From a virus (lineage: Duplodnaviria; Heunggongvirae; Uroviricota; Caudoviricetes): a DNA stretch of 38,319 nucleotides. The position numbers and the translations under genes were made by a program. Positions 1-9,623 of this stretch are shown here, piece by piece. The stretch lies in IMG/VR virus record IMGVR_UViG_2897369580_000003, positions 1 through 38,319 of that record. One strand, given 5' to 3'. A model generated the notes under the pieces. The model had not been told where the DNA came from and ran no database searches. It saw only the letters and a program-made list of their open reading frames with translations. Position 1 is the stretch's first letter, and the number at the start of each line of letters is the position of its first letter.

Positions 1-90
1 TTGCCTCCCCCCCGTTGATGGGTAAAATAGCCGCAATTTTTCGTTTTCAACAAGCGCGGCGCGATGCCGCTTACTCAAGAAGAAAGAATT
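1..90 (+). promoter_or_regulatory. Host upstream region of prfC with a candidate sigma70 promoter (TTGCCT 1-6, 16-nt spacer, TAAAAT 23-28)
   Basis: Hexamers read directly; spacing counted by eye. Confidence 0.3.
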
Positions 91-165
91 ATGACGTTGT
101 CTCCTTATTTGCAAGAGGTGGCGAAGCGCCGCACTTTTGCCATTATTTCTCACCCCAATAATTAA
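91..165 (+). pseudogene. prfC: 5' fragment of prfC (release factor 3), first 22 codons, fused to phage DNA and terminated ([24 protein letters not shown])
   Basis: Translation matches the RF3 N-terminus up to ISHP as I recall it (native continues DAGKTT); the reading frame diverges at about 156 and stops at 163-165. Confidence 0.7.
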
Positions 166-319
166 GCCCAAATTAAAGCTCTTTTACTCTTTCAAAATCC
201 TTTCAGTTAATTAAGGTTGAGCTATATAACCCATTTAAATACATTTGGTTATGTGGCTTCTTTAATTGAAAATTCTTTCATGTAACTTTAAATCGATCAG
301 CTTGCTTTCATCAAAAATC

Positions 320-376
320 TGTACATATGCTTGTACATAATGTACAAAACAGCAGAGGTGTTTTGCGATTTGTACA
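320..376. repeat. Four copies of the palindromic hexamer TGTACA (320-325, 332-337, 341-346, 371-376) just upstream of the integrase start
   Basis: Direct reading of the sequence; clustered within 57 bp immediately 5' of the int ATG at 386. Confidence 0.6.
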
Positions 377-385
377 AGGTGAGTA

Positions 386-1609
386 ATGGCGCTGTCTGAT
401 GCGTGGTTGCGTTCAGTCGTTGGAAAGGAACGTGATAAGGTTTTGGTTAAATCCGATCGTGATGGTCTGTCTGTCAGAGTATCACCGAAAGGTCGCGTAG
501 TGTTCCAATATCGTTATCAATGGGCAGGGAAAGGTGAGCGTCTTGATATCGGAACTTACCCGGCAACTGGATTAAAAGAGGCCAGAGAAGAAGTTATCCG
601 TCTTCGTGGTGAACTCGAGTCAAACCGTAATCCACGATTGGTCAAGCAGGCTGAAAAACGAAAAGCTACTGAAGCCATGACGGTAGAGTCTGTGATCCGT
701 GCTTGGTATGAAGCATATTGTGTAAAAAATAAAAAAGGTTCTGAACAGATACTCCGCTCGTTTGAGCTGCACCTGTTCTCTAAAATCGGGAATATCCCTC
801 ACGATGCAGCTACATTGCATGATTGGTTAGAAGTCCTGGAGCCTCTTAGCACTAAGACTCCAGCAATAGCAGACCGATTGCTAATTAACGCAAAGCAGGC
901 CCATGTCTGGGCGTATAAGAGAAAGCTCATTGAAACTCGCCCGCTGTCGGATATCACGGGTAAAGATATGGATATCCGTAAAGGTCAGAAGAAACGGTTT
1001 CTGACACATGATGAAATTAAAATCCTTTATGCTGCGATCGATGGTTCTCGAATGGTTCCTAAATACCGGGCCTTCATTAAACTATTGCTGCATTTTGGTT
1101 GCCGTAGTTCAGAGCTTATTACCGCCCGGGTGGACGATTTTGATTTCATTAATAAAGTATGGACTGTACCACCAGAACGACATAAGACTGGGGAGATAAC
1201 AGGCGAACCGCTAAAGCGGCCGATTATTGAACCGGTTGAAGAGCTTATAAAGTACGCTATCTCTATGAACAATGGTTCAGATATGCTTTTTACTAAGGAA
1301 GGAAGCAGGGAACCCGTTGGTCGGACATCATTGCAGTCGCTGCCTTACAATTTAATGCAGTACGCATGGCGGCGTTTAGGATATCAATTCCCTCATTGGT
1401 CTCTTCATGACTTGAGACGTACAGCTCGAACAAATTTTTCTGATCTTACTGCGCCTCATATCGCAGAAATTATGCTTGGTCATAAGCTGCCAGGGGTATG
1501 GCAAGTTTATGATAAGAGCGATTATCTAGAAGAACAGCGTAAAGCTTACCTGGCATGGTGGAAGAGGGTTGAATCGATTGTTAATTGTACTATATCTGAT
1601 TCAAACTGA
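386..1609 (+). CDS. int: Tyrosine site-specific integrase, P4-like (arm-type N-terminal DNA-binding domain plus catalytic domain)
   Basis: 407 aa; N-terminal GLSVRVSPKGRVVFQYRY pattern typical of P4-type integrases; C-terminal HDLRRT ... LGHK ... Y catalytic residues; adjacent to junction. Confidence 0.9.
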   Translation: MALSDAWLRSVVGKERDKVLVKSDRDGLSVRVSPKGRVVFQYRYQWAGKGERLDIGTYPATGLKEAREEVIRLRGELESNRNPRLVKQAEKRKATEAMTVESVIRAWYEAYCVKNKKGSEQILRSFELHLFSKIGNIPHDAATLHDWLEVLEPLSTKTPAIADRLLINAKQAHVWAYKRKLIETRPLSDITGKDMDIRKGQKKRFLTHDEIKILYAAIDGSRMVPKYRAFIKLLLHFGCRSSELITARVDDFDFINKVWTVPPERHKTGEITGEPLKRPIIEPVEELIKYAISMNNGSDMLFTKEGSREPVGRTSLQSLPYNLMQYAWRRLGYQFPHWSLHDLRRTARTNFSDLTAPHIAEIMLGHKLPGVWQVYDKSDYLEEQRKAYLAWWKRVESIVNCTISDSN

Positions 1610-1895: not shown

Positions 1896-2615
1896 ATGTC
1901 AAAGTTAAAAAATGAACCATTAGTAAGGGTATCAGAAGAAGACGGAATAGAAATAAGGAAGATCCAATATCCAGATAATACGATAGAAAGAATTTATAAG
2001 CAGAAAGGTGTAATATTACCACGAATACCTTTAAAAGGCCGTTTTGTAGAACAATATGTGGCCTTACAGTTGCTTGATAAAGATCTTCGGAATGTTATTG
2101 GTTGGGAGAATATAATAAAAAACATTTGTAATAACATTAATAAAGAACAACACTTTATTTATCCGGATTTAGAAAAGAATCTAATATTAAAGTCTTTGTT
2201 TATATCAAAAGTTGTTACTTACGGTAAGTGTTTTACAGAGGCGAAAGGGCGTCGATTCACATTGCAGAGAAAGCATGTGCCAGAAAAATACAGAGATTTA
2301 CATGACTCTATTATGAATGTTAGACATAACTTTGCTGCCCATAAAGGTGAATTCGAATATGATCAATGTGGCTTGGTTTTAATATTGCCGGGGACCAAGA
2401 AAAAAAGGTACTATCATATTTTTTCAGAACTCAATCAAATAAATTACGGTAATAATGAGGAAGATGATGAACGTTTTTTTATGTTATATGATTCACTGCG
2501 TGAAGTCATTAAAGAAAAACAAGATAAATTAATTGATAAAATATACGCTGAAAAGATTCATACTCAAACAATGGAGTATTGGTTGAGCCGAGCAGGAAAA
2601 GAAACAGAGATTTAA
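1896..2615 (+). CDS. Hypothetical cargo protein, AT-rich, with a possible HEPN-like Rx5H motif (RHNFAAH, about residues 143-149)
   Basis: 239-aa ORF with RBS-like AAGAGGG upstream; composition markedly more AT-rich than the flanking integrase; no recognisable phage function; motif seen by eye only. Confidence 0.6.
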   Translation: MSKLKNEPLVRVSEEDGIEIRKIQYPDNTIERIYKQKGVILPRIPLKGRFVEQYVALQLLDKDLRNVIGWENIIKNICNNINKEQHFIYPDLEKNLILKSLFISKVVTYGKCFTEAKGRRFTLQRKHVPEKYRDLHDSIMNVRHNFAAHKGEFEYDQCGLVLILPGTKKKRYYHIFSELNQINYGNNEEDDERFFMLYDSLREVIKEKQDKLIDKIYAEKIHTQTMEYWLSRAGKETEI

Positions 2616-2908: not shown

Positions 2909-3103
2909 TTACTCAATCACTCCCGCAAATCTGTAAATCTTGTGTGATGCCCATTTATTTGGGCAGGATTTAATATCAGGATCTGGAAAGTCAGGCCTGT
3001 ATTTCTGGCCAGTTCTCCTGTTTACGCTGTTCCAGCGAAGAACTGTCGATACTGAAACACCACAGAAATCGGCGACTTGTTTAGTTGTCATTAAGTTGTT
3101 CAT
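2909..3103 (-). CDS. xis: Excisionase / AlpA-family helix-turn-helix DNA-binding protein
   Basis: 64 aa; TTKQVADFCGVSVSTVLRW motif typical of Xis/AlpA HTH; start overlaps the stop of the upstream gene. Confidence 0.75.
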   Translation of the reverse strand: MNNLMTTKQVADFCGVSVSTVLRWNSVNRRTGQKYRPDFPDPDIKSCPNKWASHKIYRFAGVIE

Positions 3104-9376: not shown

Positions 9377-9454
9377 GGCACCTTATAAAGCGGGTGCCGG
9401 GCGTGGAAACCCGGAATTCACCAAAGCGCACAACCGCGCTCTTGCGGTTTTTTT
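9377..9454 (+). terminator. Two adjacent stem-loops (GGCACC/GGTGCC 9377-9398; CCGGG/CCCGG 9397-9414) followed by an intrinsic terminator (AACCGC-gctctt-GCGGTT + T7, 9432-9454)
   Basis: Inverted repeats and T-tract read directly; lies in an ORF-poor stretch between the immunity-region genes and Rha. Confidence 0.5.
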
Positions 9455-9623
9455 GTGTCATGAGCAGCATTACGCCCAAATTATGGTGGGGCGTGCAGGG
9501 CCAACTTCGGTTGGGCCGGGTTCTTTGGTGACCGGTATTTCCACCCCTGTACGTCTCACCACCAATAAGGTCGTGGAAAGCCTTGGTGGTGAGTTATTTA
9601 AAATCACCAAAGAGGCTGCCATC

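Follow-up and report, generated by a model that had tools for sequence, protein, structure and literature searches.

A prophage attachment site within the 5' end of prfC, and a phage-borne prfC start at the opposite junction

What becomes of prfC, the gene of peptide chain release factor 3 (RF3), when a prophage inserts itself among the first codons? The question is raised by the left edge of a viral record from IMG/VR (IMGVR_UViG_2897369580_000003, positions 1 to 38,319), of which the whole stretch of 38,319 nucleotides is analysed here and is referred to as the window. The original prediction, made from the sequence alone, described the first 385 bases as a promoter-like region followed by the first 22 codons of RF3 running directly into phage DNA. 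We examine this junction together with its counterpart at the other end of the element, the corresponding site in free phages, the integrase and its relatives, and what the arrangement may mean for the host gene.

In the alignment to the uninterrupted prfC locus of E. coli K-12 MG1655, the first 155 bases of the window are identical to 4609324-4609478 at all 155 positions. Window position 1 is the base directly after the yjjG stop codon, and by the K-12 annotation positions 1-90 are the entire 90-bp spacer between yjjG and prfC, while 91-155 are nucleotides 1-65 of prfC. The ATG at 91-93 opens 22 residues that are equal to the N-terminus of K-12 RF3, as the original prediction had read them. 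Codon 22 is CCC where the host has CCG, which makes position 156 the first non-host base; two phage codons (AAT AAT) come next and then a TAA at 163-165. The host sequence is thus continuous up to a sharp breakpoint, and the alignment agrees with the divergence at about 156 in the P-loop codons, and with the stop at 163-165, that had been proposed. The break lies within the codons of AIISHP/DAGKT (at the slash), the G1 or P-loop motif of the RF3 GTPase. The features that follow from this alignment and from the comparisons described below are, in window coordinates:

1-90, plus strand: host yjjG-prfC spacer, 100% identical to K-12, with the native ribosome-binding site (RBS) region and the promoter-like match at 1-28
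91-165, plus strand: truncated host prfC, consisting of 22 RF3 codons (91-156), two phage codons and TAA, a remnant of about 23-24 codons
142-155, no strand: attL copy of the 14-bp common core ATTATTTCTCACCC, identical in attL, attB (K-12) and attR
156-385, plus strand: phage P' arm and int upstream region, contiguous with the attR-side arm in phages 2H10, cdtI and Ayreon
386-1609, plus strand: tyrosine integrase of 407 aa, IntSXT subgroup, probably of its prfC-targeting lineage (Pfam Arm-DNA-bind_3, Phage_int_M and Phage_integrase)
2909-3103, minus strand: candidate excisionase of 64 aa with a helix-turn-helix (PHROG phrog_1553 'excisionase', E=4e-36)

The promoter-like region at the left edge is a sigma-70-like TTGCCT-16-TAAAAT at 1-28, a consensus match only, and a consensus scan of window 1-450 gives no terminator-like site. 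The native upstream region of prfC, cut off from the body of its gene, is now directed into the prophage toward int. The remnant of prfC that it retains is annotated by PGAP as a partial pseudogene in the RefSeq record of E. coli ATCC BAA-2469 (NZ_CP158435.1, 4244518-4244586), to which the whole window is 100% identical.

This host genome supplies the other end of the element. There is one copy of the core and no second within the window, because attR lies outside it; the second ATTATTTCTCACCC in NZ_CP158435.1 is found 39,054 bp from the first and 876 bp past the right end of the window, as a direct repeat beside the rest of the target gene, with prfC codon 23 onwards following it. The three-way alignment of attL, attB and attR gives the 14-bp common core at window 142-155, which covers prfC codons Ile18-Ile19-Ser20-His21-Pro22 of the P-loop region; judged from this alignment, strand exchange would have to fall inside these 14 bp. 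To the left of the core an imperfect likeness continues through a phage version of the prfC start into the RBS region, where the phage has AAAGAGACAACAATT and the native gene AAGAAGAAAGAATT.

The phage DNA on the attR side reads ...TTGTACATATGATTGTACATAATCAAAGAGACAACAATT followed by ATG ACA AGC CTT TTG GCC GCA GAG GTA GCG AAA AGA AGA ACC TTT GCA ATT ATT TCT CAC CC, and then continues as host GGACGCCGGTAAG. The phage-borne ATG and 21 codons are thereby fused in frame to prfC codon 23 onwards. The hybrid ORF of 528 aa is annotated by PGAP/RefSeq as an intact peptide chain release factor 3 and reaches 1089 bits against TIGR00503, the equivalog model of RF3. It differs from native RF3 in residues 3-8 alone and is one residue shorter. 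A prfC 5' region is therefore reconstituted at the right prophage end.

The original prediction had reasoned that, with a gene of essential function interrupted, the phage must supply a replacement 5' end at the other junction. The replacement is indeed present at attR, 876 bp past the window, but "must" is too strong, since prfC is not essential: delta-prfC E. coli strains are in routine use (SXT/R391 literature) and prfC is absent from the essential-gene list (Ogura et al. 2007). A compensating arrangement elsewhere in the host, offered at that time as the alternative, is not needed with the hybrid prfC at attR.

The next question is [quoted passage not shown] We join the phage arm of attR, the core and the phage arm of attL into a predicted attP of 523 bp. 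This sequence is found contiguous and at full length, with 96-98% identity, in Escherichia phages 2H10, cdtI and Ayreon, where both arms are joined via the core and where the alignment has this ATG with its 21 codons and, directly after them, CCCAATAATTAA. An attR without the core and free phages without the imitated prfC start were both looked for, and neither was found. In Ayreon the triplet before the core is the host-like GCC instead of GCA, giving 17 bp of identity with attB. GenBank records of Stx2c and Stx1a phages mark exactly these 14 bp as 'duplication due to insertion' (e.g. LC727876).

Among 5,426 complete E. coli genomes, the segment with attL and int occurs in 698 and the attR segment in 691, with prfC annotated under the attR match, and about 13% carry both junctions. 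With the same junction and integrase in so many complete genomes, the arrangement is not an assembly artefact. Taking the evidence as a whole, we consider with high confidence that window 1-385 is the attL of a tailed prophage, 39 kb long, whose att-int region is of the cdtI/2H10/Ayreon type.

Many other IMG/VR provirus contigs start at the same base, with int at contig 386-1606, and the right end of the window (38319) is the end of a gene, 876 bp short of attR. The boundaries of the window and of these contigs look like cuts made by a provirus caller at gene boundaries, which trim a dinI-like gene together with attR.

The arrangement is already known from related phages. Phages cdtI, 2H10 and Ayreon and the Stx1a and Stx2c phages integrated at prfC have the same 14-bp core, the same position in prfC and the same 21-codon phage-borne start, with integrases that are 97-99% and attP sequences that are 96-98% identical to those described here. 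Cargo and parts of the body differ between them and the present prophage, in which cdt and stx are absent, a contractile-tail module is present and the genes beside attR are another set than in the cdtI/Stx group. Stx1a and Stx2c phages at prfC have been described (Nakamura et al. 2023), and the cdtI phage is placed at prfC by Asakura (2007) as that work is cited in a later paper.

We turn our attention to the integrase. Directly beside attL, the 407-aa protein has the catalytic domain of a tyrosine recombinase (PF00589, E=1e-17) and an N-terminal DUF4102/Arm-DNA-bind_3 domain at residues 3-90 (PF13356, E=1.9e-16). It is 98% identical to the integrase of phage cdtI and 39% identical over the full length to that of R997, an SXT/R391 element. 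The integrases of the cdtI phage and of SXT fall into one prfC-targeting cluster of the IntSXT subgroup, of which the DUF4102 arm-binding domain is a hallmark (Smyshlyaev et al.). The insertion at the 5' end of prfC is shared with 19 relatives in other genera at identities of at least about 45%.

The 64-aa ORF on the opposite strand may well be the Xis of this system from its PHROG match; its Pfam match to HTH_17/MerR is weak and below threshold, and the RefSeq record of NZ_CP158435.1 has no annotation for it. Between int and this candidate lies a 239-aa ORF (window 1896-2615, plus strand), where the G+C content is 30-33% as against 45-49% on either side. The ORF has a match in PHROG phrog_8440 (function not known) and none in Pfam or PADLOC, and it resembles cargo, at a position typical of morons.

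Around attP a short repeat stands out. The P' arm has four copies of TGTACA (window 320, 332, 341 and 371) and the P arm three (at -114, -86 and -74 relative to the core); these seven fall within about 350 bp, against two copies across the other 38 kb. Two GTGTACA about 12 bp apart, with a third beside the int start, recur in 19 distant prfC-type loci whose flanking sequence is unrelated, and because they are conserved we read these repeats as probable arm-type Int binding sites.

[quoted passage not shown] We compared it with R997 (NZ_KY433363.1, a circular PLSDB record), and the likeness is considerable: R997 uses the same Ile-Ile-Ser-His-Pro codons of the prfC 5' end for its integration, its related integrase has the same three-domain layout and is highly similar to ours over the first 60 residues, GTGTACA lies in both of its arms, and GTGTACAAA repeats are found just upstream of the element-borne ATG and in the other arm. 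It also brings its own ATG and about 20 codons whose end is like the phage version, although the N-terminal peptide (MANQDFLNEIN...) differs and the nucleotide version is independent. In design, the phage arrangement is homologous to that of SXT/R391. A 14-bp repeat at prfC is likewise described for the SXT-related ICEApl2. Membership of SXT/R391, however, requires an Int nearly identical to IntSXT, which 39% identity to R997 Int is far from, and attP and int are 96-99% identical to those of isolated phages. The int gene of R997 is on the opposite strand, with xis between int and att, whereas ours runs away from the core, its start being 230 bp off. R997 is a conjugative element and ours a phage: the 39 kb between the cores hold phage morphogenesis and lysis genes in place of a conjugative backbone (tra, setCD, setR), with no conjugation genes annotated there. 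This gene content already refutes the ICE reading, to which we give next to no credence.

How widely is this target used by the integrase lineage? A protein search returns a large Int family of 50-85% identity in many proteobacteria, and a scan of one genome per species gives 80 integrase loci. In 19 of these 80 the int gene stands 226-264 bp downstream of a host prfC fragment, and every fragment ends after the same P-loop peptide. The 19 loci are from Escherichia, Pantoea, Serratia, Pseudomonas, Marinobacterium, Methylomonas, Methylobacter, Kangiella, Halomonas, Microbulbifer, Variovorax, Methylibium and other Gamma- and Betaproteobacteria. From genus to genus, the first 8-10 residues of the host RF3 fragments differ freely, which fits with RF3 tolerating a phage-supplied N-terminus.

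Nine relatives without a prfC fragment, 40-46% identical, adjoin a truncated 5' fragment of lepA instead; their hosts are Klebsiella, Enterobacter, Phytobacter, Kluyvera, Edwardsiella, Acinetobacter and a Piscirickettsiaceae MAG. The lepA fragment ends ...KNIRNFSIIAHID about 237 bp upstream of int; lepA codes for a paralogous translational GTPase, and the cut is at its corresponding P-loop codons. Gifsy-1 is known to integrate at lepA. With both fragments cut at equivalent codons, it appears that two GTPase genes, prfC and lepA, are targeted by this lineage at their G1-motif codons. The prfC-targeting cluster is not defined by percent identity alone, as the lepA-targeting relatives are 40-46% identical and the prfC-targeting R997 Int is 39% identical. 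Over the last 110 nt before int, the presumed arm motif is GTGTACA at prfC loci (the L007-L069 set) and GTGTCCA/TGGACAC at enterobacterial lepA loci (L036-L059), at the same positions relative to int.

At other loci of the family (L018, L021-L033, L039, L042, L043, L045, L047-L049, L051-L056, L058, L061-L068 and L070-L086) no start fragment of prfC, lepA, typA or fusA lies within 2.5 kb; their integrases are 30-53% identical and come from Xenorhabdus, Photorhabdus, Morganella, Acinetobacter, Shewanella, Vibrio and others. None of 26 scanned relative loci without a prfC fragment has a tRNA target. As a source of a distant attP we considered Moraxella phage Mcat13 (Int 42% identical), whose record begins at the int start codon and contains no att site. 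A scan of viral contigs with an integrase alignment likewise gave no distant attP, its matches being near-identical E. coli proviruses only (97-100%).

Is the element still a phage, or a decayed and immobile remnant fixed at prfC whose junction is a relic? A remnant would be in keeping with the few small genes within the prophage that are called as partial or as pseudogenes. Against it, the element has two perfect att sites, an intact int and a candidate xis, and near-identical att-int modules are carried by the isolated phages Ayreon, 2H10 and cdtI. Over the window, NZ_CP158435.1 is annotated with regulatory, replication, lysis, head, contractile-tail and baseplate prophage genes; the 39 kb between the cores include terminase, portal, capsid, tail sheath and tube, baseplate, lysis and lambdoid regulatory genes, a full morphogenesis set. 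We regard decay as very improbable, and continue with the element as a tailed prophage.

Some further elements of its interior can be described. Rfam matches above the gathering score are the isrK Hfq-binding RNA (window 9378-9454, plus strand, 67 bits) and the C4 antisense RNA (9479-9566, plus strand, 83.6 bits), next to each other in the early/regulatory part of the prophage. Two regulator genes, one of the GrlR family and one of the PerC family (yfdN), are annotated at window ~17.7-18.4 kb and 11.2-11.7 kb (L001 28328-28648 and 34982-35476; the window runs along the minus strand of L001). Both are homologous to regulators of the LEE virulence island.

From both junctions, the core, the attP of free phages, the in-frame hybrid ORF and the integrase lineage, all of which are observed, a mechanism can be proposed. 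The phage integrase would exchange strands in the 14-bp core common to attP and prfC codons 18-22, codons whose conservation across proteobacteria would make them a widely available landing target. Integration would strand the host promoter region and 22 codons at attL, with a stop after two phage codons. At attR, the phage imitation of the prfC start (RBS-like stretch, ATG and 21 codons) would be joined in frame to codon 23 onwards. Elements that carry a substitute gene end and keep the ORF are familiar from e14 and phage 21 at icd (3' end) and from Gifsy-1 at lepA (5' end). A substitute 3' end, as at icd, needs no promoter or start codon, whereas for prfC the promoter, the RBS and the start would all have to be provided by the phage.

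We infer that the hybrid prfC is transcribed from phage DNA and yields a functional RF3. What speaks for this is that the ATG, the RBS-like stretch and the in-frame lead are kept in phage and ICE versions of differing nucleotide sequence. From the divergent dinI-like gene to the phage-borne ATG there are 219 bp, in which the consensus scan for promoters and terminators gives no sigma-70 promoter in the sense of prfC; the promoter-like sites of this intergenic region are on the dinI-sense strand only. By eye, a CATAAT can be made out 16 nt before that ATG; its -35 is poor, it overlaps the TGTACA repeats, and the TG before it is one base out of register for an extended -10. The dinI-like gene beyond the right end of the window (DinI family, Pfam E=1e-19; L001 7690-7998) is divergent from the hybrid prfC, and upstream of it are a promoter-like site and two LexA-type boxes, CTGT-N8-ACAG, about 155-210 bp upstream of the phage-borne prfC start.

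Alternatively, integration may simply inactivate prfC, the phage "start" being an extended att homology or a core-type Int binding sequence and the hybrid silent or poorly expressed, with RF3 dispensable. This would agree with the lack of a consensus promoter upstream of the phage-borne ATG and with the viability of delta-prfC strains, and prfC is listed among the genes 'disrupted' by prophages (Bobay et al.). Ogura et al. (2007) found that an Stx1 phage in prfC alters a short N-terminal region of RF3 and stated that transcription and translation of prfC in the lysogens are unknown. The imitated start, however, keeps more than an integrase binding site needs: an ATG, the RBS-like AAAGAGACAACAATT and a 21-codon open frame joining prfC, features that are maintained in Ayreon, in cdtI and, with another sequence, in R997. 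Residues 1-10, which the phage replaces, make up the stretch in which RF3 naturally differs from species to species. SXT, moreover, reportedly brings a new promoter and 5' coding sequence for prfC. We therefore hold inactivation to be unlikely, and take a phage-driven hybrid gene as the working model.

A more speculative extension, which we put forward as rather doubtful, is that in about one in eight E. coli strains the synthesis of RF3 is under phage control. The putative promoter of the hybrid gene would be weak and non-consensus, overlapping the arm sites and lying about 155 bp from a divergent promoter-like site that overlaps the two LexA-type boxes upstream of the dinI-like gene, while the native prfC promoter, with no terminator predicted behind it, would read into int. 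Under the same proposal the lineage would be specialised on the P-loop codons of prfC and lepA, with arm motifs that change with the integrase. If this is true, lysogeny would shift the dosage of RF3, and hence the efficiency of termination and quality control, and the supply of Int would be tied to a host housekeeping promoter.

In annotation, the stub of prfC at attL is to be read as the scar of a prophage, and the prfC at attR as a hybrid of host and phage whose start is phage-derived. Prophage callers that work by gene boundaries lose the last 0.9 kb of the element, as happened for this window. The locus bears on a question raised since 2007, that of whether the hybrid RF3 is expressed and which promoter would serve it, and it offers a clean case of a mobile element that lands in a deeply conserved coding segment and mends the gene that it splits.
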